DNA from: Eubacteriales bacterium
GTDB taxonomy: Bacteria; Bacillota; Clostridia; Oscillospirales; JAAYXM01
Assembly (NCBI GenBank): GCA_045595365.1
Contig: JAZOAI010000033.1
Location: 743 to 64,742 of the forward strand
Length of the DNA stretch: 64,000 nt
Reading direction: 5' to 3'
The notes below the pieces were generated by a model that had not been told where the DNA came from, did no database searches, and saw only the letters and a program-made list of their open reading frames with translations. Positions 40,909-55,820 of the stretch are shown piece after piece. The position numbers and the translations under genes are program-made. Every line of letters begins with the position of its first letter. Within the stretch, counting starts at the first letter, position 1.

Positions 40909-41718
40909 TCAAGCCAGGAACAAGGAGTTTTGTTTCAATAATTTCAAAGCATTTTTGTAATAAATCTTATCCCTGTCGTTTTGTGAGATATCCAAGGTTT
41001 CTATGAGCTGTTTTTCCCATGAGGGTCTGTGCCATGGCATATCAGATGCAAAAACAAGTCTGTCGGGCGTGTGCTTGTCCACAAGCTCCTGTGCAATTGC
41101 TTTTGGCATAGTGCCATAGCCGAAGGATAAGTCGAACCAGACATTTTCCCCGCAAAGCTTTTTGATAACCTCTAATCCACAGCTCACCCCACCCCAGTGA
41201 GCCGCGATTACAGGCGAATCAAACCACTTCAAAGCACCCCGAAGATTATCTGGCATACAATGATACGGCGGTGCATAACCATAATCATAGCCAGCATGAA
41301 AGACTGCTATAAGATCAAGCGACGAGATTTTTTTATAAATTGGCTTCATTTTTTCATCGTCAACGTAGAATTTCTGATACTCGGGGTGAAATTTAACGCC
41401 CTTTAGCCCCATTGCTTTAATACGTTCAAGCTCATCAAAAGCATCTTCTGCATCGGGGTGAACAGAGCCGAAAGCGAAAATAGATTTTTCATCATTAATT
41501 TCTTTTGCAAAATTATTCACATTCGTCTGCTGCTTTGGATTTGTGGCGATAGAAAGCACAACAGAAACATCTACACCGTCTTTTTTCATTTCACTCTTTA
41601 AGGATGGGAGAGTTCCCTGGCTTTGAGGCACAAGCCCGCCGCTGGCATATGACAGCTTTCCCATAGCCTTTGAGGCAATATCCTCCGGAAATGCGTGTGT
41701 ATGAAAATCAATAAGCAT
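40909..41718 (-). CDS. Metal-dependent amidohydrolase-fold (TIM-barrel) hydrolase
   Basis: MLIDFHTHAFP, VKFHPEYQ and FASDMPW motifs. The ATG at 41718 is preceded by GGAGACAGG. Confidence 0.65.
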   Translation of the reverse strand: MLIDFHTHAFPEDIASKAMGKLSYASGGLVPQSQGTLPSLKSEMKKDGVDVSVVLSIATNPKQQTNVNNFAKEINDEKSIFAFGSVHPDAEDAFDELERIKAMGLKGVKFHPEYQKFYVDDEKMKPIYKKISSLDLIAVFHAGYDYGYAPPYHCMPDNLRGALKWFDSPVIAAHWGGVSCGLEVIKKLCGENVWFDLSFGYGTMPKAIAQELVDKHTPDRLVFASDMPWHRPSWEKQLIETLDISQNDRDKIYYKNALKLLKQNSLFLA

Positions 41719-41937
41719 AATACCTGTCTCCATTGGTATAAAATTTCACTTCTGTTTATATAATCAATATTTATTTGCGCTTTCATTTTCGGCAGAATCA
41801 TTCTATCATAAAAGCATGTGCTTTTCAACTAAGGCCTTGCCGCCTTGGCGCCCGAAGTATGCAATTTTTCTATCCCCACAAGAAATGCAAAGAAGATAGA
41901 GCTTTGCATTTAGTTTGGCACTTCATTAGAAAGAAAA

Positions 41938-41972: not shown

Positions 41973-42506
41973 TTAGTCTTTATATTCGATTCCTGCGTTT
42001 ATCGCTTTGAGGTTTACCTCAAGGAGGTTTGCGCGCTTTGCGGAAACGACTTTTTTGAGTGAATCCTCAATATTATCGGTTCTCATTCCGCACTCCTTCA
42101 TAAGCTTGCCTGTGATAATCATATTGGCAAGAGTCGGAGCTTCCATCTCCTGCGCCATCTTTGTTGCAGGGATGTAGAAGACCTTTACATCATCACGAGC
42201 TACCTTGCGCTCAATAAGAGTAGAATCGACAAGGATGATGCCCCCCGGGACAACTGCATCCTCATACTTATCAAGCGAGGGAAGGTTCATTGCAACAAGA
42301 ACATCAGGGCTTGAAACTATCGGTGAGCCGACGGGGTCATCAGAGAGGATAACGCTGCAGTTTGCAGTTCCGCCGCGCATCTCCGGACCGTAAGACGGGA
42401 GCCAGCTGAGCTGTCTGCCCTCGAGAAGGCCTTTATATGCAAGAAACTTTCCTGCGAAAAGAATGCCCTGGCCGCCGAAGCCTGCCAAAAGAATTTGAGT
42501 TGTCAT
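41973..42506 (-). CDS. 2-oxoacid:ferredoxin oxidoreductase, gamma subunit
   Basis: [14 protein letters not shown]...[15 protein letters not shown] is the signature of POR/KOR/VOR gamma subunits. Confidence 0.8.
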
Positions 42507-42508
42507 AA

Positions 42509-43261
42509 TTATGCTTCCTCCTTCTCTGCGCTCTTGTCCTTATAAACTCCGAGCGGATAGTACGGAATCATATTGTCATCGACCCACTTGAGCGCATCGT
42601 TCGGTGTGAGCCCCCAGTTTGTTGGACAGGTGGAAACGACCTCGATAAGCGAGAAGCCCTTACCCTCTACCTGATTCTGGAATGCTTTGAGGATAGCCTT
42701 TCCTGCTGCCTTAACATTCTTAACGCTGTTGACTGCAACACGCTCGATATACTGCGGGCCGTCAAGCGTTGCGAGCATTTCGGAAACGCGAATCGGATAA
42801 CCTGCTGTGTTGACATCACGGCCGTACGGCGAGGTCTGTGTAACCTGGCCGGGAAGCGATGTCGGAGCCATCTGGCCTCCTGTCATACCGTAGATTGCGT
42901 TATTGACAAAGATGATTGTTATGTTTTCATTCCTTGCTGCGGCGTGGACAGTTTCTGCCATACCGATGGATGCAAGGTCGCCATCTCCCTGATATGTGAA
43001 GATTACATTCTCCGGAAACGCGCGTTTTAAGCCTGTTGCAACAGCGGGAGCGCGGCCGTGAGCCGCCTCGACCATATCGCATGAGAAATAATCATATGCC
43101 ATAACCGAGCATCCGACCGGAGCAACACCGATAGTTTTGCCCTCAACTCCGAGCTTATCTATTGCCTCTGCAACAAGGCGGTGAATAATACCGTGAGTGC
43201 AGCCCGGGCAGTAGTGAAGCGGTGCATCTGTAAGACTTTTCGGTTTTTCAAATACTACCAT
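42509..43261 (-). CDS. 2-oxoacid:ferredoxin oxidoreductase, beta (TPP-binding) subunit
   Basis: YCPGCTHGI, GDGD...IG, NNAIYGMTGGQ. Confidence 0.85.
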   Translation of the reverse strand: MVVFEKPKSLTDAPLHYCPGCTHGIIHRLVAEAIDKLGVEGKTIGVAPVGCSVMAYDYFSCDMVEAAHGRAPAVATGLKRAFPENVIFTYQGDGDLASIGMAETVHAAARNENITIIFVNNAIYGMTGGQMAPTSLPGQVTQTSPYGRDVNTAGYPIRVSEMLATLDGPQYIERVAVNSVKNVKAAGKAILKAFQNQVEGKGFSLIEVVSTCPTNWGLTPNDALKWVDDNMIPYYPLGVYKDKSAEKEEA

Positions 43262-44322
43262 TATTTGCTACCTCCCTTGACTTCCATAATTTTTGCAAGA
43301 ACTTCTTCCGGTGACGGAATCATACCGCCGACGCGGTTGCAGAGATATACCGGTTTTTTGCAATCTGTTGCAAGGCGGATATCCTCAATCATCTGACCCA
43401 TTGAAAGCTCAACGCTTATAAATGCCTTGACCTTATCGGCAGCTTCCGCAAGAGGCTTCTTCGGGAACGGCCATACTGTAATCGGGCGAATCATTCCGAC
43501 CTTTACGCCCTCCTTGCGAGCTGCAACGACTGCATTCTTCGCAACGCGGGCAGCGATGCCGAAAGCAACAACGCAGTATTCTGCATCGTCCATCATAAAG
43601 CTTTCATATCTTGCTTCATTCTCTTCAATCAGCTTATATCTCTCATATCTCTCGATATTCTTCTTCTCAAGCTCCTCGGGCTTTAAGTAGAGAGAGTTGA
43701 TGATGTTGTGTTCACGCTTGCAGCCGGTGCCTGTAACAGCCCAGTCCTTTTCTGATGAACCGTCATTCTCCTCGGGGAGAACAACAGGCTCCATCATCTG
43801 ACCCATGGTTCCGTCAGCAAGGAGCATTGCGGGCATACGGTATTTCTCCGCAAGCTCGAATGCAAGAGCTGTCATATCAGCCATTTCCTGAACGGATTCG
43901 GGAGTGAGAACTATTATGCGGTAGTCACCGTGGCCGCCGCCCTTTGTGGACTGGAAATAGTCCGACTGTGAAGGCTGAATTCCGCCAAGGCCCGGGCCTC
44001 CGCGCTGAACGTTTACGATAAGTGCGGGAAGGTCTGCACCTGCGATATAGGAGATACCCTCCTGCTTAAGTGAGATTCCGGGGCTTGAAGAGGATGTCAT
44101 AACACGCTTTCCCGTTCCCGCAACGCCATATACCATATTGATAGCGGAAATCTCGCTTTCTGCCTGGAGGAAGGTCCCTCCGATTTTCGGCATTTTCTTT
44201 GCCATATACGCCGCGACCTCTGTCTGCGGGGTTATAGGATATCCGAAGTAGTGGCGGCAGCCTGCACGGATAGCAGCTTCCGCAATAGCTTCGTTACCTT
44301 TCATTAAAACTTTTTCTGCCAT
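43261..44322 (-). CDS. 2-oxoacid:ferredoxin oxidoreductase, alpha subunit (VorB-like)
   Basis: MKGNEAIAEAAIRAGCRHYFGYPITPQTE..., 353 aa. Confidence 0.85.
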   Translation of the reverse strand: MAEKVLMKGNEAIAEAAIRAGCRHYFGYPITPQTEVAAYMAKKMPKIGGTFLQAESEISAINMVYGVAGTGKRVMTSSSSPGISLKQEGISYIAGADLPALIVNVQRGGPGLGGIQPSQSDYFQSTKGGGHGDYRIIVLTPESVQEMADMTALAFELAEKYRMPAMLLADGTMGQMMEPVVLPEENDGSSEKDWAVTGTGCKREHNIINSLYLKPEELEKKNIERYERYKLIEENEARYESFMMDDAEYCVVAFGIAARVAKNAVVAARKEGVKVGMIRPITVWPFPKKPLAEAADKVKAFISVELSMGQMIEDIRLATDCKKPVYLCNRVGGMIPSPEEVLAKIMEVKGGSK

Positions 44323-44559: not shown

Positions 44560-45228
44560 TTAAAATATTTTTTTCTGAAGCCGGAGAGGGAAAAATCTCC
44601 GGTTTTTATCCTTTTCGCATAAGCTCTCCATCGCCGTCGTCATAACAAGCGGAACGCCTGCAAGCTCTGATAACTCCTGCGCGAGGGCTTCTGTCTTTTC
44701 GATTGCTTCAATATCCGTTTCACTTCCGATATTGGAGTTGTTGACAATCCCCGTGAACGGAATTCCCGCAGCCGCTTCTATCTCGCGGAAAACCTCGTAT
44801 GCACTTTCTGCATCGCGAGTCAATGGGCGGAAGAAGTTTACGACAAACAGATTGTCAAAATCGTTTTCCTCAAGTATATACGGGCGATATCTCCCCAGCG
44901 CATAAGCTCCGCGGTCATCGCCGCCTATATCCATAACAACGCGGCAATCTCTGCGCTGAACAAGCCCATATACCTCCTGCGGAAGTGCCGGCAAATCAAC
45001 GCTCGTATTTGCAAACGGGAGTGCAACAACCTCGACTCCCGCCGCTTGGAGTTCTTCTAAGCTGTCCTTCGTGCGGAAGTATGGGTTTACCACGTCAATA
45101 TCAGCTATTGCAACCGCATCCCCCTGACTTTTCAGATAAAGCGCGAAGTTAACCGCGATATTCGTTTTTCCGCTGCCGTAGTGTCCGCAAAAAAGAGTTA
45201 TCCTCTTGTTTAAAGAATTACTGACCAA
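44560..45228 (-). CDS. P-loop NTPase of the MinD/ParA/CooC-like (SIMIBI) type
   Basis: A deviant Walker A motif, GHYGSGKTN, near the N-terminus, with DIGGD as a probable Walker B motif. TTG start overlapping the ilvE stop by 19 nt. Confidence 0.55.
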   Translation of the reverse strand: MVSNSLNKRITLFCGHYGSGKTNIAVNFALYLKSQGDAVAIADIDVVNPYFRTKDSLEELQAAGVEVVALPFANTSVDLPALPQEVYGLVQRRDCRVVMDIGGDDRGAYALGRYRPYILEENDFDNLFVVNFFRPLTRDAESAYEVFREIEAAAGIPFTGIVNNSNIGSETDIEAIEKTEALAQELSELAGVPLVMTTAMESLCEKDKNRRFFPLRLQKKIF

Positions 45229-46277
45229 TTGAACTTATCCTCGCATTCGCCCCACTGGATTCCTGTTATCGTGTCATAGAGTTTCTGGCTGACTTCGCCG
45301 ATTGTGTTGTTGTTTATGAGCATAACGTCATCCTTATAGCGAAGCTTGCCGACCGGAGAAATAACCGCAGCGGTTCCTGTTCCGAAGCACTCTTCGAGCT
45401 TGCCTGACTTCTGAGCATCAAGAAGCTCTTCAACGGAAATTTTTCTCTCCTCGACTTCATACCCCCAGGACTTGCAGACTTCGATTACGGAGTTTCTTGT
45501 AATACCCGGGAGGATGCTGCCGGAGAGCTCCGGGGTAACAATCTTGCCGGCAATCTTGAAGAAGATATTCATCGCGCCGACTTCTTCGATGTATTTTCTC
45601 TCAACACCGTCAAGCCAGAGAACCTGAGAATAGCCTTCATCGTGTGCCTTGACCTGAGCAGCTAAGCTTGCTGCGTAGTTTCCGCCTGTTTTTGCAAATC
45701 CCATACCGCCCTTGACAGCGCGGACATAGTCATCCTCAATCCAGATTCCGACAGGAGCAAGGCCACTTGCGTAATACGCGCCTGATGGTGAGAGGATTAT
45801 GATAAAGAGATATGTTTTTGACGGTGCAACACCGAGGAATTCGTCTGTCGCGATAATGAACGGGCGAATGTAGAGCGATGTACCTGGGGTAGTGGGAATC
45901 CAGTCCTCATCGACCTTGACAATAGCCTTGCAAGCCTCAACGAAGAGTTCTTCAGGAAGCTCAGGAATGCAGAGGCGCTTGTTTGTGGCGTTTGTGCGCT
46001 TTGCGTTCATATCGGGCCTGAAAAGGCGGGCTTTTCCGTCTTTTCCCCTGTATGCCTTAAGGCCTTCAAACATTTCCTGCCCATAGTGGAATACCATAGC
46101 GGAGGGGTCAAGGGAAAGCTTTTCATAAGGAACTATTCTTCCGTCATGCCAGCCCTTTCCTTCCGTGTAGTTCATTAAGAACATATGGTCGGTAAAGACC
46201 TTTCCGAAGCCGAGCTTTGACTCATCCTGCGGATGTGCCTTCGGAGTTGTTGTTTTTGTAACCGAAAAGTTATACAT
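45210..46277 (-). CDS. ilvE: Branched-chain-amino-acid aminotransferase
   Basis: FGKVFTDHMF, HYGQEMFEGLKAYR, TGGNYAASL and GTGTAAVISPV are typical of the 355-aa YbgE/YwaA-type IlvE. Confidence 0.9.
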   Translation of the reverse strand: MYNFSVTKTTTPKAHPQDESKLGFGKVFTDHMFLMNYTEGKGWHDGRIVPYEKLSLDPSAMVFHYGQEMFEGLKAYRGKDGKARLFRPDMNAKRTNATNKRLCIPELPEELFVEACKAIVKVDEDWIPTTPGTSLYIRPFIIATDEFLGVAPSKTYLFIIILSPSGAYYASGLAPVGIWIEDDYVRAVKGGMGFAKTGGNYAASLAAQVKAHDEGYSQVLWLDGVERKYIEEVGAMNIFFKIAGKIVTPELSGSILPGITRNSVIEVCKSWGYEVEERKISVEELLDAQKSGKLEECFGTGTAAVISPVGKLRYKDDVMLINNNTIGEVSQKLYDTITGIQWGECEDKFNWSVIL

Positions 46278-46318: not shown

Positions 46319-48607
46319 TTAAAGCTTGTTGCGCTGAATCTTTCCGCTTACCGTCTTCGGGAGACTCTCGCGGAAGACAACAAGACGCGGGTATTTATAT
46401 GGCGCGGTATGCTCTTTAACGTATGTCTGGATTTCCTTTTTGAGTTCCTCCGTCGGCTCTGTCCCCTTTGTGAGAACGATGCTTGCCTTAACTATCTGGC
46501 CGCGAACCTCGTCGGGAGCGGCGGAAACTCCGCACTCAAGAACATACGGAAGCTCCATAATAACGCTCTCAATTTCAAACGGGCCTATGCGATAGCCGGA
46601 GGATTTGATAACATCGTCAACACGGCCGACGTACCAATAGAAGCCGTCTTCATCGCGCCAGGCGGTATCGCCGGTGTGGTAGTAGCCGTCGTGGAGAACC
46701 TCAAGGGTTTTTTCCTCATCGCGGTAATAGCCTTTGAAGAGGCCGCAGGGATGCCCGTCTTTTACATTGATGACAATCTCGCCCGTCTCGCCAACTGCCA
46801 CCTCTTCGCCATTTTCGTTGATAAGCTCGACATTATATATGGGAGCCGGCTTACCCATAGAACCGATTTTGTGTGGCGCACCGACCATATTGCCTATAAT
46901 CATCGTGCTTTCTGTCTGCCCAAATCCCTCGATTATCTGAAGCCCTGTCGCCTTTTCAAACTGGCGGTAAACCTCAGGATTGAGAGCTTCGCCTGCCGTC
47001 GTCATATGCTTGACTGATGAGAAGTTGTATTTTGAAATATCTTCTTTGATCATCATCCGGAGCATTGTCGGAGGCGCGCAGAAGGTTGTTATATTATATT
47101 TCTCAAACATCGGAAGGATGTCTGATGCATCAAAGCGGTCAAAGTCGTAAACAAACACTGCTGCTTCGCAAAGCCACTGGCCGTAGAGTTTACCCCACAT
47201 CGACTTTGCCCAACCGGTTTCGGAGATTGTGAAATGAAGGCCGTCGGGGTCGACATTGTGCCAGTATTTCGCTGTATGGAAATGCCCGAGCGGATATTTG
47301 TGGCTGTGCGCCGCGATTTTCGGGTAGCCGGTAGTCCCTGATGTAAAGAACATAAGGAGAAGGTCATCTCCGCAGGGGGAATCTGCAGTCCGCTCAAAGT
47401 GAGAGCTAAAGAGCGTATACTCCTCGTCAAAGCATCTCCAACCGTCACGCTCACCGCCAACGATAATCTTGTTGAGAAGCTCGGGGCATGTTTTTGCCGC
47501 TTCATCTACCTGGTGAGCGGCATCTCCGTCTGCCGTGCAGATTACCGTGTTGACGCCTGCCGCCTGGAAGCGGTATTCAAAGTCGTGAACCTGCAGCTGA
47601 TTTGTAGCAGGGATTGCGATTGCGCCAAGCTTATTTAAACCTATCATCGCAAACCAGAACTGGTAATGACGCTTGAGGACCAGCATAACGCGGTCGCCCT
47701 TCTTGATTCCGAGAGACTTGAAGTAGTTCGCACATCTTGCAGATTCACGCTTTATATCCGCAAACGTAAAGCGGCGCTCCGTCTTGTTTATGTCAATATG
47801 TAGCATCGCAAGCTTTTCCGGCTCACGCTCGGCAAGCGCATCAACAAGGTCGAAGGCGAAGTTGAACCCGTCGGTGTTTTTGAACTTGATTGACGTCGGG
47901 GTTCCGTTTTCGTTTTCTTCGGTGTCGATATAGTTGCGGTAAATTCTCGTTTTTGTATCCTTCTTTACCTCGCGAACCTCGGAAATCGCCTTTGTCGGCG
48001 AAAGCTCAGGAATAGGCTCTCCGGAAGGATTGAGAACGATTGCGTAGAAAACACAATCCGCTCCGTTTGTCGCAATCATGCCGTGTGGCGTGTTACTGTC
48101 ATAGTATATGCTGTCACCGGGGCCGAGAATTTCGCGGTGGTCCCCTATCTGCACGAGCAGATGCCCCTCGACGATTATATCACACTCCTGGCCATCGTGA
48201 GAGGTGAGTTCAATATCAGACTCACTTATGCTATCGTCGTATGAAATTCTGACGTAAAGCGGCTCTGCGATTCGGTTCTGGAACGCATATGCTAGGTTAT
48301 AGTATGTCATCCCGTGAGCCTGGCCTATCTTCTGACCGAGACCTGACCGCGTAACCGTAAACGACTTGAGCGTCGGGCTCACGCCCTCAATAATGTCGGT
48401 AACATTGACGCGGAGAACTGTTGCACATCTGTAAATAAACGCAAAGTTTAAATCGCTCTCTCCCAGCTCGCAGCTGTTGTATTCCTCGACTGTCACTCCC
48501 GTAGCTGACGCCATTTCTTCGGGAGACAATCCCTCAATCTCGCGAAGCTCGCGTATGCGCGCCGCCATTTCTTTGATTTTGTAATCAAGCCCTGTCATTT
48601 TCGCCAT
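46319..48607 (-). CDS. XRE-HTH + cupin + AMP-forming acyl-CoA ligase fusion (paralog 1, behind the Val T-box)
   Basis: Residues ~10-75 form an HTH (IRELREIEGLSPEEMASATGVTVEEYNSCE). Residues ~120-190 form a cupin (DIIVEGHLLVQIGD...GDSIYYDSNTPHGM). The rest is an ANL adenylating enzyme (FFTSGTTGYPK, GFGQTE, YHTGD, SGKIQR). Confidence 0.8.
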   Translation of the reverse strand: MAKMTGLDYKIKEMAARIRELREIEGLSPEEMASATGVTVEEYNSCELGESDLNFAFIYRCATVLRVNVTDIIEGVSPTLKSFTVTRSGLGQKIGQAHGMTYYNLAYAFQNRIAEPLYVRISYDDSISESDIELTSHDGQECDIIVEGHLLVQIGDHREILGPGDSIYYDSNTPHGMIATNGADCVFYAIVLNPSGEPIPELSPTKAISEVREVKKDTKTRIYRNYIDTEENENGTPTSIKFKNTDGFNFAFDLVDALAEREPEKLAMLHIDINKTERRFTFADIKRESARCANYFKSLGIKKGDRVMLVLKRHYQFWFAMIGLNKLGAIAIPATNQLQVHDFEYRFQAAGVNTVICTADGDAAHQVDEAAKTCPELLNKIIVGGERDGWRCFDEEYTLFSSHFERTADSPCGDDLLLMFFTSGTTGYPKIAAHSHKYPLGHFHTAKYWHNVDPDGLHFTISETGWAKSMWGKLYGQWLCEAAVFVYDFDRFDASDILPMFEKYNITTFCAPPTMLRMMIKEDISKYNFSSVKHMTTAGEALNPEVYRQFEKATGLQIIEGFGQTESTMIIGNMVGAPHKIGSMGKPAPIYNVELINENGEEVAVGETGEIVINVKDGHPCGLFKGYYRDEEKTLEVLHDGYYHTGDTAWRDEDGFYWYVGRVDDVIKSSGYRIGPFEIESVIMELPYVLECGVSAAPDEVRGQIVKASIVLTKGTEPTEELKKEIQTYVKEHTAPYKYPRLVVFRESLPKTVSGKIQRNKL

Positions 48608-48636: not shown

Positions 48637-48922
48637 AAAAAACACTCGTCCCAAAGTTGATAATCCTTGAGACGAGTGAGATAAACAATACACCCGCGGT
48701 ACCACTCAAATTGTGCAAAAAATGCACCGCTCAGGCTCTACTAAGCCTTATGCCTTTACGCAGCAATCACGGAAAGGTTCTACTGACCGAAATGATTCGG
48801 ATTTCTTCCTCTCAGCTCAGAAGCTACAACCGCAAAGCACGTGCCAGATAGCTCACACCAACCGCTACCTCTCTGAAAGCCCGTTCTCCTTGCGCACTCT
48901 TCGTCAAAGCTTTTAATAATTT
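48637..48922 (-). promoter_or_regulatory. T-box leader, specifier read as GUA (Val)
   Basis: On the minus strand: K-turn and helix (GAAG/CUUC), AGAGAG bulge, distal loop GGUUGGUGUGA, specifier loop 3' side GUU-GUA-G (codon at 48827-48825), T-box AGTGGTACCGCGGG, and terminator CACTCGTCTCAA/TTGGGACGAGTG plus T6. Confidence 0.75.
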
Positions 48923-48981: not shown

Positions 48982-51249
48982 CTAAAGCTTGTTTCGCTGA
49001 ATCTTTCCGCTTATTGTTTTCGGAAGCTCGTCGCGGAATACGACAAGACGCGGATACTTATACGGCGCAGTGTGTTCCTTGACGTAGTTCTGGATTTCCT
49101 TCTTAAGCTCCTCTGTCGGCTCGGTTCCCTTTGTGAGAACAATGCTCGCCTTTACTATCTGCCCGCGAAGGTCATCCGGTTCTGCCGAAACTCCGCACTC
49201 AAGGACATACGGAAGCTCCATTATGACACTCTCGATTTCAAACGGGCCGATGCGATATCCCGAAGACTTGATAACATCGTCAATACGGCTTACATACCAG
49301 AAATATCCGTCTTCATCGCGCCAGGCCGTGTCACCCGTGTGATACATGCCGTAGCGCATACATTCTTCCATTTTTTCATCATCGTCAAGGTACTGCCTGA
49401 AGAGCCCGACAGGGGTATTCTTATCAAGCTTTACGACAATCTCTCCGACCTCGCCGTTTGCCACTGTGTTTCCGTCGGGGTCAACAATATCAATATCATA
49501 CTGCGGAGAAGCTTTTCCCATAGAGCCTATGCGCGGAGTTGTCCCGAAGAGGTTTGCTATGATGAGCGTAGTCTCCGTCTGACCAAACCCTTCCATAATC
49601 TTAAGCCCGGTTGCTTTTTCAAACTGCTTGTAAACCTCGGGGTTTAATGCTTCTCCGGCGGTTGTCATATGGTGGATTGAAGAAAGGTCGAATTTCGACA
49701 GGTCTTCTTTTATAAACATACGCAGCATTGTCGGAGGTGCGCAGAAGGTTGTGATGTTATACTTTGCAAACATCGGGAGAATGTCCGTTGCGGCAAAGCG
49801 GTCAAAGTCGTAAACAAACACAGCGCCCTCGCAGAGCCACTGGCCGTAGAGCTTGCCCCAGAGTGACTTTCCCCAGCCTGTGTCAGATATTGTGAAATGG
49901 AGCCCGTCACGCTCGCAGCAATGCCAGTATTTCGCCGTCACAAAGTGCCCGAGGGCATATGTGTGCTTGTGTTCAACCATCTTCGGATTTCCGGTTGTCC
50001 CTGATGAGAAGAACATAAGCGCAGCATCATCGCCGCACGAGGTGTCTTCGCATCTTGCAAAATTACTTGAAAAGCGGCCGTATTCGCTGTCAAAATCGTG
50101 CCAGCCGTCACGCTTGCCGCCAACGAGGATTTTCGTCGTAAGGCTCGGGCATCGCTCTGCCGCTCGCTCCGCCATCTCTGCAGCATAGTCATCCGCTGTG
50201 CAGATGATTGCAGAAACGTTCGCCGCGCTGAAGCGGTATTCAAAGTCGTGATCCTTAAGCTGATGAGTTGCAGGAATTGCAACCGCGCCGAGCTTATGAA
50301 GCGCGACCATTGCAAACCAGAACTGGTAGTGCCGTTTTAATACTATCATAACGCGGTCGCCGCGCTTTATTCCGAGTGATGCGAAGTAGTTTGCACATCT
50401 TGCCGACTCGCGCTTGATGTCCTCAAACGTAAAGCGGCGCTCGGTCATATTCTTATCCACATGGAGCATCGCAAGCTTCGTGGGAGCCTTTTCTGCAATA
50501 GCATCAACAACATCAAACCCGAAATTGAAGCTTTCGGTGTTTGTGAACTCAATGCTCTCCAAAACGCCCTCCGAGCTTTCCTTGCACTTTACAAACTTCT
50601 CGCAGGAGAGCTTTGTGGCAGGGCGAAGTGAAACCACGCTTTCGCGGATTTCTTCTTCTTTTACATCCTCGCCGGGAAGAACGACTGCACAGAAAACGCA
50701 ATCCTTGCCGTCGACCGCAATCATTCCGTGAGGGGTTGAGCTGTTATAGTAGATGCTGTCGCCCTCGTGAAGAACCTCAACATTTTTCCCAACCTGAACC
50801 TTAAGCGAACCGCTGATGACAATGTCAAACTCCTGGCCGCTGTGTTTTGTAAGGTGGATTGGCTTATTCTGCTGCTCCTCTGAATATTCATATCTTACCC
50901 AATAGGGTTCTGCAATCTTGTTTTTAAATTTGGGCGCAAGATTTGCAATCGAGATTCCCTCCTCCTTTGCAGTCTCCTGCCCTTTTCCCTTGCGGGTGAC
51001 CGTGTAGGAAGAAAGGTGGGCATCCCCTCCGCCGAGAAGCTCGATTATCTCAATCCCGAACGCAAGCGCGCATTTGTGAATAAATGTAAACGGCATATCT
51101 GCTGAGCCACTCTCATATGCCTTGTATTCATCCTCTGAAACTTCGCAGAGCTTTGCAAGCTCCGGGGCGCTCATTCCCATAATCTCCCGCATCTCGCGAA
51201 TTCGGGTCGCGACCTCCGTTAACTGCGTCATTGATTTTTCCAAAGTCAT
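48982..51249 (-). CDS. XRE-HTH + cupin + AMP-forming acyl-CoA ligase fusion (paralog 2, behind the Ile T-box)
   Basis: Same three-domain layout as 46319-48607 and alignable end to end. The C-terminal ~100 aa are almost identical (DVIKSSGYRIGPFEIESVIMELPYVLECGVSA...). Confidence 0.8.
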   Translation of the reverse strand: MTLEKSMTQLTEVATRIREMREIMGMSAPELAKLCEVSEDEYKAYESGSADMPFTFIHKCALAFGIEIIELLGGGDAHLSSYTVTRKGKGQETAKEEGISIANLAPKFKNKIAEPYWVRYEYSEEQQNKPIHLTKHSGQEFDIVISGSLKVQVGKNVEVLHEGDSIYYNSSTPHGMIAVDGKDCVFCAVVLPGEDVKEEEIRESVVSLRPATKLSCEKFVKCKESSEGVLESIEFTNTESFNFGFDVVDAIAEKAPTKLAMLHVDKNMTERRFTFEDIKRESARCANYFASLGIKRGDRVMIVLKRHYQFWFAMVALHKLGAVAIPATHQLKDHDFEYRFSAANVSAIICTADDYAAEMAERAAERCPSLTTKILVGGKRDGWHDFDSEYGRFSSNFARCEDTSCGDDAALMFFSSGTTGNPKMVEHKHTYALGHFVTAKYWHCCERDGLHFTISDTGWGKSLWGKLYGQWLCEGAVFVYDFDRFAATDILPMFAKYNITTFCAPPTMLRMFIKEDLSKFDLSSIHHMTTAGEALNPEVYKQFEKATGLKIMEGFGQTETTLIIANLFGTTPRIGSMGKASPQYDIDIVDPDGNTVANGEVGEIVVKLDKNTPVGLFRQYLDDDEKMEECMRYGMYHTGDTAWRDEDGYFWYVSRIDDVIKSSGYRIGPFEIESVIMELPYVLECGVSAEPDDLRGQIVKASIVLTKGTEPTEELKKEIQNYVKEHTAPYKYPRLVVFRDELPKTISGKIQRNKL

Positions 51250-51279: not shown

Positions 51280-51558
51280 AATAAAAACTCGCCTCAAAGG
51301 TTTCTTTGAGACGAGTTCGATAACAAAACCGATACCCGCGGTACCACTCAAATTGTGCAAGAAAATGCACCACTCAGGCTCCAGCAAGCCTTATGCCTTT
51401 ACGCAGCAATCACGGAAGGCGCCTACTCACCGCAAGGGTTTCGGACCTCCAGCTCAGAAGTGATGGGAGAAAACAGTTCACTATCGGGATTTCACCGCCC
51501 CCGACTCTCTGAAAAGCTTCGTTGTTTTTCCGTCTTCGTCACAGCTTTTATTTATTTT
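51280..51558 (-). promoter_or_regulatory. T-box leader, specifier read as AUC (Ile)
   Basis: Same K-turn and GAAG/CUUC helix as the Val leader. Specifier loop 3' side is CCC-AUC-A (codon at 51464-51462). It also has the AGAGAG bulge, distal loop GGCGGUGAAAU, T-box AGTGGTACCGCGGG, and terminator AACTCGTCTCAAAG/CTTTGAGGCGAGTT plus a T run. Confidence 0.75.
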
Positions 51559-51608: not shown

Positions 51609-54065
51609 TTATTCAAGCCCTAAAAGCTTCGCCGCTTCCTCGCGCATTTTATACTTGAGGATTTTCCCCGCTGCGTTCATCGGGAAGCTCTTTACGAACA
51701 TAAAATATCTCGGAACCTTATGGCGCGCTATGTGAGCGTTTCCAAACTCGCGCATCTCATTCTCGTCAGCTTCCTCGCCGTCGTGGAGGATAATCCACGC
51801 ACAGCACTCCTCACCGTATCTCTTGTCGGGAACGCCGACAACCTGAACGTCGCGAACCTTCGGGTTTGTGAGGTAGAATTCCTCTATCTCGCGTGGATAC
51901 AGGTTTTCACCGCCGCGGATAATCATATCCTTGAGGCGGCCTGTGACCTTGTAATATCCGTCAGGAGTTCTGCAGCAGATGTCACCCGAATGGAGCCAGC
52001 CGTCGGCATCTATCGTCTGTGCGGTGGCGCGGGGCATTTTGTAGTACCCCTTCATTATGTTAAATCCACGCGCTACAAATTCGCCGCTCTCCCCATCCGG
52101 AAGCTCTTCTCCCGTTTCGGGGTCAATAATCTTGCACTCAACTCCCGGGAACGCGCTTCCGACAGTTTCAACTCGGTGGTCGATATCCTCATTGACCTCG
52201 CCCATAGTGCAGCCCGGGGATGCCTCAGTCTGGCCGTAAACGCTTATAATCTCCTTCATATTCATCTCATCTGCAGCGCGGCGCATAAGATCTGCAGGGC
52301 AGTTTGCGCCTGCCATTATGCCGGTGCGGATATGAGAGAAGTCTGTTTTTTGGAAATCCGGATGATTGAACATCGCAATAAACATCGTCGGGACTCCATT
52401 GAAGCAGGTTATTCTCTCGTCATTAACACAGGCGAGTGAGGATGCCGGAGAAAAGTATGGCATCGGAAAGAGCGTTCCGCCGTGAGTCATCGTAGATGTC
52501 ATGGAAAGAACCATCCCGAAGCAGTGGAACATCGGAACCTGAATCATCATACGGTCGGCAGTTGAGAGATCCATACGGTCGCCTATCGTTTTGCCGTTAT
52601 TGACTATATTTCTGTGAGTGAGCATAACCCCCTTCGGGAACCCTGTTGTTCCTGAGGTGTATTGCATATTGCAGACATCGTCAGGCTCAACGAGCGATGC
52701 GCGGCGGCGCACCTCTTCCTTCGGAACATCAGCCGCGCGGGCAAGCATATCCTCCCAGGTGAGGCAGCCTGCCATTTCAAAGCCGACTGTTACTACATTC
52801 CTGAGAAACGGAAGGTTTTTTGCATAAAGCGGTTTTCCCGGCTGCAGGGTAGCAAGCTCAGGGCAAAGCTCCTCTATAATCTCGCGATAGTTTGTATCCT
52901 TGCAGTCTTCAATCATAACGAGCGTGTGGGTGTCTGACTGGCGAAGCAAGTATTCAATCTCGTGGATTTTATATGCCGTATTGACAGTTACAAGAACTGC
53001 TCCGATTTTTGTTGTTGCCCAGAAGGTTATAAACCATTGGGGAACATTCGTCGCCCATATGGCAACGTGGTCTCCGGCTTTTACGCCAAGGGAAATGAGA
53101 GCCGCTGCCGCCTCATCAACATCGCGGCGAAATTCAGAATACGTTCTTGTGTAATCAAGTGTTGTATACTTAAAAGCATACTGGTCGGGGTACCTCTCTG
53201 CCATAGTGTCGAGAACCTGAGAGAAGGTCTTGTCTATTACCTCGTACTTTTCCCAGACGTATGTCCCCGTTTTTGCTCTGTTATAGAACACATTCTCGCG
53301 GGAATTCTTTATTCCGCCGAGATTCTCAATGTAATTTGAAAAATGCGTCAGAACAATGTCTGCATCGTCAATTTCATCGTTCCAGGCAACAGAGATAAAG
53401 CCGTCATAGTTAAGCGACGAAAGCGCATCTATAACCTCTCCCACAGGGAGGTCTCCCTCTCCGATGAGGACATTTGTTTCACCCTTGCGGTCACCGAGTC
53501 TTACATACTTAATATATGCGCCAAGGTTTGTGATTGTATCCTCCGCACTTTCCCGTGCGCAGAAATATGTTTCTCTGACATCCCACGCCGCGCCGAGAGC
53601 TGCACTTGAGAAGAATTTTATTATGTCAATTACATTTTCCGTGTGCGAAAGATAGTCTGACGTTGAGAGAAGAATTTGCACATCTGAGCCTTCTGCCCGC
53701 TCAATTGCAGGAGAAAGCCTTTTTTCGAGAAGCCTAAAATCCGTTTCCTTTTCAATATGGACAATCACGCTCGGGATACCTGCACTAAGTGCCATATCAA
53801 CATATCTTTTTACAGCTTCTCCGTCAGCCTCGTCTGAATCAAGAGCATACGGATATATAAGCGACGACACCTCAAGGGCGCGGTTTAAAAGCTTGCGTTT
53901 TGAATCAGAAACCTTGCCGCTTCTGAGAATGCTGTCAGGATGATTCATCCTTTCTTTTTCGGCATCGTATATCTCAAAGCCTGAAAATCCATAGTCATAA
54001 GCATACTTGCAGACATCGAGAAAGGTGGCACACCTGATGTTTTTTGTCGAAAAGGTGAATTTCAT
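51609..54065 (-). CDS. Fusion protein: xylose-isomerase-like TIM-barrel domain + AMP-forming acyl-CoA ligase
   Basis: The N-terminal ~270 aa resemble sugar-phosphate isomerase/epimerase (AP_endonuc_2) TIM barrels (GFSGFEIY, VIVHIEK, LPVGEVIDALSSLNYDGFISV). The C-terminal ~550 aa form an ANL ligase (YTSGTTGFPKGVMLTH, YGQTE, WLHSGD, RGGENLYP, GKILK). The ATG at 54065 lies 6 nt after GAGGAGG and 1 nt after the upstream stop. Confidence 0.75.
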   Translation of the reverse strand: MKFTFSTKNIRCATFLDVCKYAYDYGFSGFEIYDAEKERMNHPDSILRSGKVSDSKRKLLNRALEVSSLIYPYALDSDEADGEAVKRYVDMALSAGIPSVIVHIEKETDFRLLEKRLSPAIERAEGSDVQILLSTSDYLSHTENVIDIIKFFSSAALGAAWDVRETYFCARESAEDTITNLGAYIKYVRLGDRKGETNVLIGEGDLPVGEVIDALSSLNYDGFISVAWNDEIDDADIVLTHFSNYIENLGGIKNSRENVFYNRAKTGTYVWEKYEVIDKTFSQVLDTMAERYPDQYAFKYTTLDYTRTYSEFRRDVDEAAAALISLGVKAGDHVAIWATNVPQWFITFWATTKIGAVLVTVNTAYKIHEIEYLLRQSDTHTLVMIEDCKDTNYREIIEELCPELATLQPGKPLYAKNLPFLRNVVTVGFEMAGCLTWEDMLARAADVPKEEVRRRASLVEPDDVCNMQYTSGTTGFPKGVMLTHRNIVNNGKTIGDRMDLSTADRMMIQVPMFHCFGMVLSMTSTMTHGGTLFPMPYFSPASSLACVNDERITCFNGVPTMFIAMFNHPDFQKTDFSHIRTGIMAGANCPADLMRRAADEMNMKEIISVYGQTEASPGCTMGEVNEDIDHRVETVGSAFPGVECKIIDPETGEELPDGESGEFVARGFNIMKGYYKMPRATAQTIDADGWLHSGDICCRTPDGYYKVTGRLKDMIIRGGENLYPREIEEFYLTNPKVRDVQVVGVPDKRYGEECCAWIILHDGEEADENEMREFGNAHIARHKVPRYFMFVKSFPMNAAGKILKYKMREEAAKLLGLE

Positions 54066-54066
54066 A

Positions 54067-55458
54067 TTAATCCTCCTCAAAAACAATCTTGTTGAGTGCA
54101 TTGATATATGCACGGATGCTTGCCGCTACAATGTCAGTGGAAATTCCGTTGCCTGAATAGAGCTTCCCGTGGCTGCGCAGACGGACAAGAGCAGATCCGA
54201 GAGCTTCCTTGCCCTCTGTAACCGCCTGAATCTGGAAGTCGTCAAGCTCGTAGTGGTAACCCACGCTCTGCTCAATAGCGCGGAAAACAGAGTCAATCGG
54301 CCCGTCACCCGTGCTGACTCCGTGAAGGAGCTTATCGCCCGTGCGGAGAGTTACCTGCGACATAGAGTCTGCGAGGTTTCCGCAAGTTGTTGTGTAACTC
54401 TCGAGATGATATTTTGACGGCGCCTGCATAGCAAAGCTTGCAATAAGAGCTTCAAGCTCTTTTGCTCCGACACTTCCCTTTTTCTCACAAACCTGAGAAA
54501 GCGCGGAATGAACATTCCCGCAATCCTCATCTGTCAGGTCATAGCCGAGGATCCGCGCAGCTTCTGCCACCTGGGTGATTGTGCTGTCTGTTGTGAGGAA
54601 AATCGAGCTTTTTGAACCGTCTTCTGATGTTTCTTCAGTCTTAACGCTGTGGTTGATTTTCTTAAGCAACGCTTCCGTATCCGAATGAACCTGAGTGTTT
54701 TTAAGCCCTGTGAAGATGCCAAAGCTCTCCCCTCTTTTGCTGATCGCATCGGAAAGCTCGCCCGTTATGAGGGTTGATGAACCGCAGAGGGCGCACTTAA
54801 GCCCCGAAGCACCTGCTTCGATCGCTGAAATCGCTGTTGCGACCGCCATTCTGAGGTTGTTTGAAACAGAAACACAGACCGAAACCGAAACCTTACCCGA
54901 AATCCTGCCCACAAGCTCTGCCATTTCTGCAGGGAGGAAAACTCCCGCATCATCACAGAGAGTTACGCTTCCTGCACCGGCGCGCTCAGCTTCTAAAACG
55001 CAATTTTCGAGAAACTCGAGGTTTGCGCGGGTTGCATCAAGCGCAACAAACTCAACATCGCTGCATAATGCTTTTGCATTTGCTACAAGCTCTGAAATTT
55101 TAGTGAGCATTTTTTCAGCCTTGATGTGGTATGTATACTCCATCGAAACAGTCGATGTGGGAAGCGCGACCTGAAGCCGCGGGTGTGCAGCGTCTTTTAT
55201 GCACTCCCACGCCTGTTCCGCTTCGGCTTCTGAAAAACCGACAGGAATTGCAACGATGCAATCCTTGAGGGTTGAGGAAATTGTTTTATATATAATGGTG
55301 TCCTCGCGAAGCTTTTTAATCGGAGCGAGCTCAACAACGTCAACTCCGCAAGCCTCCGCGCAAGCCGCAATAGCTGTTTTTTCACGGAAAAGAAGATTTG
55401 CCTCGCGCTCGTTTGCAAGGTTTTTGAGAGTAATGTCTGCAATAGTGATTTTTTTCAT
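54067..55458 (-). CDS. LeuA/CimA-like protein with a degenerate catalytic barrel and a conserved C-terminal LeuA regulatory (dimerisation) domain
   Basis: The C-terminus (GDGPIDSVFRAI...QAVTEGKEALGSALVRL...GNGISTDIVAASIRAYINALNKI) matches the LeuA allosteric domain. In the N-terminal barrel, DITLKNLANE replaces DTTLRDGEQ and VSVSNNLRMAV replaces HxHNDxGxAxAN. ATG at 55458, 8 nt after AAAGGAG. Confidence 0.7.
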   Translation of the reverse strand: MKKITIADITLKNLANEREANLLFREKTAIAACAEACGVDVVELAPIKKLREDTIIYKTISSTLKDCIVAIPVGFSEAEAEQAWECIKDAAHPRLQVALPTSTVSMEYTYHIKAEKMLTKISELVANAKALCSDVEFVALDATRANLEFLENCVLEAERAGAGSVTLCDDAGVFLPAEMAELVGRISGKVSVSVCVSVSNNLRMAVATAISAIEAGASGLKCALCGSSTLITGELSDAISKRGESFGIFTGLKNTQVHSDTEALLKKINHSVKTEETSEDGSKSSIFLTTDSTITQVAEAARILGYDLTDEDCGNVHSALSQVCEKKGSVGAKELEALIASFAMQAPSKYHLESYTTTCGNLADSMSQVTLRTGDKLLHGVSTGDGPIDSVFRAIEQSVGYHYELDDFQIQAVTEGKEALGSALVRLRSHGKLYSGNGISTDIVAASIRAYINALNKIVFEED

Positions 55459-55499: not shown

Positions 55500-55785
55500 A
55501 ACAAAAAACGCCTTCGCCTCATTGTTGCTTCAAAGAGACGAAAGCGTTAAATTTAAAATTTAACTTTCCGCGGTACCACTCTTTTTCATCCGTTTCGGAT
55601 GCCCTTAGATGCCAGCACATCTTAACTCTGTTACGGGAGTGCCCGTCTGCCCCTACAATTTGAAGTTCACGGCAGCCGCTCCGCGGTGAGTTCTGCAAGT
55701 CTTTTCCAATGCCTTGCACCAACCGGCATCTCTCTTCAGATAAAAGAATTTTGCATACTATTCCGCATCACTGCGTTTTTATTTG
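55500..55785 (-). promoter_or_regulatory. T-box leader, specifier CUC (Leu)
   Basis: A canonical Stem I: K-turn GUGAUG/CGGA, 5' AAUAGUA, AGAGAG bulge, distal loop GGUUGGUGCAA, and specifier loop GAA-CUC-A (codon at 55690-55688). It also has T-box AGAGTGGTACCGCGG and a 14-bp terminator AACGCTTTCGTCTC/GAGGCGAAGGCGTT plus T6. Confidence 0.85.
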
Positions 55786-55791
55786 GTAAAC

Positions 55792-55820
55792 ATTTTATCA
55801 TATAGCTTCTCTTTTGTCAA
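55792..55820 (-). promoter_or_regulatory. Sigma-A promoter (extended -10) for the Leu T-box unit
   Basis: TTGACA, 17 nt, then TAAAAT, with TGA immediately upstream of the -10 element. Confidence 0.55.

Follow-up and report, generated by a model that had tools for sequence, protein, structure and literature searches.

Leucine synthesis by carboxylation of isovalerate is established in rumen bacteria, according to the work of Allison (1962, 1966, cited in PMC7356843), and in the literature searched we found no paper assigning the activating enzyme of this pathway, or assigning the fusion protein described here or its regulation. MbcS of Staphylococcus aureus, a short branched-chain acyl-CoA synthetase, is presented in PMC10026030 as activating short branched acids that the cell scavenges from its surroundings and as feeding lipid synthesis, and leucine catabolism is the function of the yng operon (bioRxiv 10.1101/2023.04.14.536918). 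The PF01261 barrels of isomerases, epimerases and dehydratases have their context in siderophore or sugar metabolism, among them the 3-dehydroshikimate dehydratase AsbF (3dx5), whose site residues are used here as listed in PMC9324987. In QuiC1/QsuB, which are given as two-domain dehydroshikimate dehydratases (PDB 5hmq; PMC7442255), such a barrel is joined to an unrelated enzyme domain and is itself the catalyst. As for regulation, the specifiers of T-box leaders agreed with the function of the gene in every case that was verified (PMC2494555).

The protein analysed here joins a PF01261-type TIM barrel to an AMP-forming acyl-CoA ligase, and the gene set of its locus would supply the activation, reductive carboxylation and transamination steps of the rumen pathway. 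Its context is amino-acid salvage, in contrast to that of AsbF and the other PF01261 enzymes, and it reverses the arrangement of QuiC1/QsuB, in that catalysis falls to the ligase while the site of the barrel is lost. The fusion has in common with MbcS the proposed role of a scavenging-type branched-acid ligase; unlike MbcS, it belongs to another ANL subfamily (about 25% identity to the MbcS-like ligases next to it), carries a barrel and would not feed lipids. The yng operon serves leucine breakdown, whereas the fusion stands under a Leu T-box, for synthesis.

The locus and its genomic background

The window, i.e., the whole stretch of DNA analysed, comprises 64,000 nucleotides of contig JAZOAI010000033.1 (assembly GCA_045595365.1) from an Eubacteriales bacterium. 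It carries the following features:

55792..55820, minus strand: sigma-70-type promoter match (11/12) of the Leu unit
55531..55780, minus strand: T-box leader with specifier CUC (Leu), controlling the LeuA homologue and the fusion; 126 bits against the RF00230 gathering threshold (cut-off) of 93
54067..55458, minus strand: LeuA homologue of 463 aa without DxTLRDGEQ and HxHND, leucine-binding domain motifs kept
51609..54065, minus strand: fusion of TIM barrel, linker and AMP-forming acyl-CoA ligase (ORF, Pfam, NCBIfam, structure model)
53316..54065, minus strand: barrel of the fusion, residues 1-250, PF01261/AsbF-like fold, metal site replaced
51612..53240, minus strand: ligase of the fusion, residues 276-818, PRK12583-like ANL enzyme, core motifs intact
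51593-51565, minus strand: promoter match of the Ile unit
51304..51551, minus strand: second T-box, specifier AUC (Ile) read by eye; 79 bits, below the cut-off, E 3.5e-16
48982..51249, minus strand: XRE-HTH, cupin and MbcS-like acyl-CoA ligase of the Ile unit
48957-48929, minus strand: promoter match of the Val unit
48665..48916, minus strand: third T-box, specifier GUA (Val) read by eye; 87 bits, below the cut-off, E 3.4e-18
46319..48607, minus strand: XRE-HTH, cupin and MbcS-like acyl-CoA ligase of the Val unit
45210..46277, minus strand: ilvE, branched-chain aminotransferase; TIGR01123, 430 bits, above the cut-off
41973..44322, minus strand: 2-oxoacid:ferredoxin oxidoreductase (vor) in three subunits, VorB, beta and gamma; VorB family PRK07119 above the cut-off

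The near-consensus promoter, the Leu T-box, the LeuA homologue and the fusion gene form one unit. Both the Ile and the Val ligase have MbcS as their best family match. Downstream of stem I the Ile and Val T-boxes are near-copies, whereas their specifiers are different; leader and ligase may thus have been duplicated together, and the encoded proteins are 63% identical. In the closest relative (L001, leader before position 1565), the Leu-unit specifier CUC is replaced by CCC, through either mutation or assembly error.

The source genome (1.44 Mb, 97.6% complete) contains no leuB above the cut-off, no IlvD match and no LeuC-sized aconitase-family frame, the sole frame of that family having 759 aa. 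It has one Icd-type dehydrogenase and a weak KARI match, and the LeuA homologue is its only HMGL-like protein. In this homologue, as in all aligned neighbours shown, the catalytic and metal motifs DxTLRDGEQ and HxHND are replaced, and it stays below the NCBIfam cut-offs, so it lacks the catalytic signature of 2-isopropylmalate synthase. Its C-terminal domain matches PF08502 with 107 bits and conserves the GDGP, EGxxAxG and SxDI motifs. Judged by these motifs, it appears to be a catalytically dead LeuA that has retained its leucine-binding domain.

Between ilvE and the vor genes lies a gene for a P-loop protein of about 220 aa (44560-45228, minus strand), in an order conserved in many loci; it had no NCBIfam match at 1e-25 and perhaps acts in Vor or ferredoxin maturation. 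An amidohydrolase-family gene (40909-41733, minus strand, about 265-280 aa) has two further paralogues in the source genome, and in loci where the fusion follows a LeuA homologue it often adjoins that gene or the fusion (L014, L050, L057, L066, L110 and others).

The fusion gene and its spread

The fusion is encoded by a single stop-free ORF of 818 aa, whose ATG follows the stop of the LeuA-like gene by 1 nt and has a GAGGAGG ribosome site 7 nt upstream. A longer reading from a GTG at 54113 was rejected because the homologues start at the ATG at 54065. Both domains exceed their Pfam cut-offs, which bears out the fused architecture of TIM barrel and acyl-CoA ligase proposed by a sequence-only reading of this DNA. 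That reading let the barrel run for about 270 residues without a break into the ligase; the barrel is indeed N-terminal, but it ends near residue 250 and is followed by a linker, of which residues 251-256 are modelled with low confidence. In the full-length model (mean pLDDT 86.7, pTM 0.61) both domains are individually well predicted and their relative orientation is uncertain.

Two barrel queries matched 1328 and 2014 protein clusters, and all 240 clusters listed have the fused architecture. Among genomes of Clostridia, the class of the source genome, the barrel query matches 204 of 399. The best 150 matches are in long fused frames or in frames truncated at the end of a contig, and stand-alone barrels may be among the 59 weakest matches. 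The homologues come by name from Clostridia, mostly from uncultured gut and rumen genomes, and include Petroclostridium sp. X23 and Syntrophomonas sp. The distribution, which the earlier reading had proposed to map, thus shows a widespread fusion, and the adjective unusual chosen there no longer fits. The same reading had allowed for two genes joined by a sequencing frameshift or an error of assembly. Separate ligase and barrel genes do occur in other Bacillota, but there in the reverse order, ligase first, and thousands of clusters and more than 100 independent genomes with the full-length fused form of 817-850 aa refute an artefact, whose probability we regard as negligible. The fusion is real, common and uncharacterised; no characterisation of it was found in the literature searched.

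The ligase domain

AMP-binding matches residues 287-675 with 326 bits (Pfam cut-off 29.9) and AMP-binding_C residues 726-801 with 56 bits (cut-off 24.5). The P-loop, the YGQTE motif, the GD/hinge motif and the C-terminal catalytic lysine are all intact and conserved, and the domain belongs to the ANL superfamily of AMP-forming acyl-CoA ligases. Its nearest NCBIfam family is PRK12583 (NF009233), whose ligases are of the ACSF2 and B. subtilis YngI type. The match covers the whole ligase (profile positions 15-555 of 558) with all ANL core motifs, yet at 676 bits it stays below the cut-off of 832, and the N-terminal barrel is a further difference; a split relative of the ligase reaches 741 bits. 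The label of a medium-chain ligase had to be abandoned, as PRK06087 gives 306 bits against a cut-off of 736 and PRK12583 is nearer. The domain reaches the cut-off of none of the named NCBIfam families. Changes fixed near the acyl pocket in the clade of the window protein (GSPCP to GANCP, I608S, S622G) indicate that the substrate range may have shifted.

The Leu T-box, the parallel Ile and Val units, ilvE and vor, a genome in which no de novo pathway was found, and the known rumen pathway together make isovalerate the most likely acid to be activated, as the sequence-only reading had supposed. From this gene context we predict that the fusion is probably an isovalerate:CoA ligase for leucine salvage.

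The barrel domain

The AP-endonuclease-2 fold suggested earlier for the N-terminus was confirmed. PF01261 (AP_endonuc_2) matches residues 20-231 with 51.5 bits (Pfam cut-off 31.1), and the barrel folded alone by AlphaFold reached a pLDDT of 91.7. Structure search with this model returned only the PF01261-type superfamily in the top 50, including Art22 (8z1i; Z 26.6, rmsd 2.6, 239 aligned), AsbF (Z 25.0, rmsd 2.8, 241 aligned) and further barrels of isomerases, epimerases and endonuclease IV; the domain is a member of the xylose-isomerase-like TIM-barrel fold family PF01261. Foldseek with the whole fusion model found ANL enzymes only, an ESM Atlas search found generic sugar-phosphate isomerase clusters only, and none of the NCBIfam isomerase families was approached by any barrel form.

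Retention of the metal-binding Glu, Asp and His residues was a point to be checked, and most of them are replaced. The ligands Glu (beta5), Asp (beta6), His (beta7) and Glu (beta8) correspond to Ser134, Asp162, Arg189 and Ala227, and Arg102, His144, His175 and Lys200 of AsbF to Ile101, Ser136, Glu165 and Gly191. The site positions of the window barrel thus read I101, S134, E165, R189, G191 and A227, with D162 and D192 kept, and six of the seven AsbF-type site residues are replaced, the equivalent of Asp172 alone being retained. This is not the site of an active PF01261 metalloenzyme of the AsbF, IolE or DTE type. The second catalytic step that had been suggested for the barrel is therefore unlikely in the window protein, for which a catalytic barrel was rejected as a candidate; the domain is very probably non-catalytic here, and such a step is conceivable only for the ancestral forms of 843 aa.

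Two fusion types and the split form

The 95 loci classified divide into 39 of type B (about 843 aa, no LeuA neighbour) and 56 of type A (about 820 aa, directly behind a putatively dead LeuA). A pattern search placed a T-box motif before about 35 of 55 units with dead LeuA and before 22 of 39 stand-alone 843-aa fusions; where stem I was readable, the specifier was CUC or CUU, with one exception. All six scored site residues are kept in 38 of the 39 type-B barrels. Basal type-A barrels keep all six in 11 of 19 cases and have lost some in the other 8, and the 37 type-A proteins of the window's clade keep two to three. The type-B barrel profile has AsbF as its best PDB match (E 2.8e-13). Intact barrels, both ancestral fused and split, match AsbF at R102, E142, D172, H175, H198, K200 and E253, but even these have Asn in place of H144.

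In a ligase-only tree rooted with the split ligases, from which 27 near-duplicate rows and the long-branch L016 were left out, type B is basal and type A forms one derived clade (SH-aLRT 82); the tree was built by a rapid method, and the base of type A is modestly supported. Four of the five changes between intact and decayed sites fall inside type A on this tree. In these sequences, site decay is almost confined to the clade with dead LeuA, and we propose that the barrel pocket was lost or rebuilt several times after the dead LeuA had become coupled to the fusion gene.

Seven loci of other Bacillota, outside Clostridia, carry the split form: a gene for a ligase of 555 aa, which shares 54-56% identity with the window ligase, and immediately behind it a gene for an intact barrel of 269 aa. 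Genes for a 2-oxoacid:ferredoxin oxidoreductase come next in six of the seven, in one case behind ilvD/ilvN-like genes. This neighbourhood suggests that barrel and ligase already cooperated with an oxidoreductase of this kind before their fusion, with the gene order reversed.

Co-retention with LeuA

LeuA_dimer was present in all 122 fusion genomes tested. Ten type-B genomes from eight genera (91-100% complete) have neither leuB nor a LeuC-sized frame and keep a LeuA with intact motifs, and the same pattern, scored by the presence of LeuA rather than by its motifs, occurs in four more genomes over 90% complete. Among 80 fusion-less genomes, 30 are without leuB, and of these only three, all less than 90% complete, have a LeuA_dimer match; the domain is found in 0 of the 27 fusion-less, leuB-less genomes that are at least 90% complete including 0 of the 9 that have vorA, counts in which related genomes are not independent and small genomes are over-represented among the controls. 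One of the three genomes with a match (G169), scored as fusion-less, carries a dead LeuA with a Leu T-box at a contig end (L153, 126-1565), and its fusion is probably simply unassembled.

Some leuB-less genomes also keep CimA-like genes, and slow gene loss, or a promiscuous aconitase and Icd replacing LeuBCD, could explain part of the LeuA retention. Two leuB-less genomes have their orphan leuA shortly ahead of the genes for aconitase and isocitrate dehydrogenase (L136, 4232-10000; L139, 4464-10000), which makes it likelier that these enzymes replace LeuCD and LeuB. The orphan LeuAs fall into two different subfamilies. This strains a model with a conserved interface, and the keeping of active LeuA from two subfamilies points to its product, 2-isopropylmalate. 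The barrel had been suggested as a docking domain for the LeuA-like protein; genomics supports the functional tie to LeuA but does not separate docking from relay by a small molecule. A predicted complex of dead LeuA and barrel, computed with one chain each although LeuA is a dimer, had a score of 0.10 (mark 0.32).

Proposed role and alternative explanations

LeuA is feedback-inhibited by leucine, and 2-isopropylmalate is made only when leucine is low. In the mechanism that we propose, uncharged tRNA-Leu would let the T-box permit transcription of the Leu unit, the ligase would convert isovalerate, ATP and CoA to isovaleryl-CoA, Vor would carboxylate this reductively to 2-oxoisocaproate, and IlvE would turn the latter into leucine. 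The ligase consumes ATP and sequesters CoA, and the cell would profit from feedback control over it. The barrel could provide this as a regulatory module without catalysis that couples the ligase to LeuA, the leucine sensor of the cell; the Ile and Val sister ligases also carry N-terminal accessory modules (XRE-cupin), and we read the barrel as the module of the leucine branch. In the ancestral 843-aa form, the AsbF-like metal and carboxylate pocket would suit a 2-hydroxy or 2-oxo acid, e.g., 2-isopropylmalate. A dead LeuA is unable to make isopropylmalate, so that a relay model needs a change of mechanism: in the window lineage the active LeuA would have been lost, the pocket rebuilt, and the co-translated, leucine-binding dead LeuA would presumably signal by contact with either the barrel or the ligase domain.

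We consider this overall explanation, an entry ligase for leucine-branch salvage with LeuA-linked control through the barrel, somewhat more probable than its negation, and we lean to the same slight degree towards the barrel as a LeuA-linked regulator. 2-Isopropylmalate as the ancestral ligand is a tentative proposal. The full scenario of a dedicated LeuA reader, in which 2-isopropylmalate binding switched the ligase on until a dead LeuA came to sense leucine and contact the fusion while the metal site decayed, is conceivable and rather doubtful.

The regulatory reading has to be weighed against a relic barrel, left over from an accessory enzyme that was formerly active and now serving structure or oligomerisation without signalling, beside an isovalerate ligase; the dead LeuA would then act on the ligase domain or elsewhere. 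The decayed site, the flexible linker with its uncertain domain orientation (pTM 0.61) and the barrel identity within the window's clade (64%, far under the 89% of the ligase) would all fit a relic. However, a new set of near-invariant barrel residues has been fixed in this clade (H42, D44, S45, R48, R57, N61, R62, R164, R189, N229, D236), which gives the impression of a domain that was rebuilt rather than one in mere decay; site decay tracks the dead-LeuA clade, and protein searches restricted by length turned up no member of the clade that cleanly lacks the barrel. We judge a mere relic unlikely. Still less probable is a barrel that works as an enzyme in a second step (dehydration, isomerisation or acid repair), possibly on the LeuA product, in a leucine route free of LeuBCD. 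The near-invariant AsbF-like site of the 843-aa and split forms and the active LeuA kept without leuB and leuC would speak for it, but the window protein has the replaced site described above in a genome without active LeuA, the Asn at AsbF His144 is found even in intact forms, and we see no plausible chemistry from 2-isopropylmalate to isovaleryl-CoA; we regard it as highly improbable.

The substrate might also differ, if the ligase takes broader or other acids, such as branched acids used as membrane-lipid primers in the manner of MbcS, with leucine salvage as a secondary function. Such a shift would agree with the absence of any match above a named NCBIfam cut-off, with the pocket-region changes on a long branch (0.42-0.44) and with the precedent of a branched-acid ligase feeding lipids as presented in PMC10026030. 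It is harder to reconcile with Leu T-box control in both fusion types, one ligase per amino acid and the linkage to ilvE and vor in many loci, and it seems improbable to us.

Knowledge of the isovalerate-to-leucine route in rumen bacteria dates back to the 1960s, and the fusion is a directly testable candidate for its activating enzyme, with a gene in up to about half of the sampled Clostridia genomes. If the assignment is true, it explains the leucine supply of gut and rumen species whose small genomes lack leuBCD or ilvD, and it suggests an isovalerate supplement when such species are cultured. The co-retention of LeuA offers a testable role for orphan leuA genes, which metabolic models now treat as pathway remnants. 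If the LeuA-reader model holds, bacteria without leuBCD would retain active LeuA for the sole purpose of generating a signal, and the window lineage would have enzyme-level control by two pseudoenzymes with intermediate stages still extant. The fusion family forms a series from intact barrel to pseudoenzyme.

Further barrel relatives

For four distant stand-alone barrels no common neighbourhood was found. Stand-alone intact barrels without a ligase neighbour (L154, L156, L157, L164, L166, L168) adjoin thr, arg, aro or tRNA-synthetase genes, not sugar genes. A 776-aa relative (P0222; L132/L133, 1175-3505), encoded 1 nt behind its upstream gene, combines a decayed barrel with a strongly diverged ligase of 31% identity and is possibly a further stage of decay.
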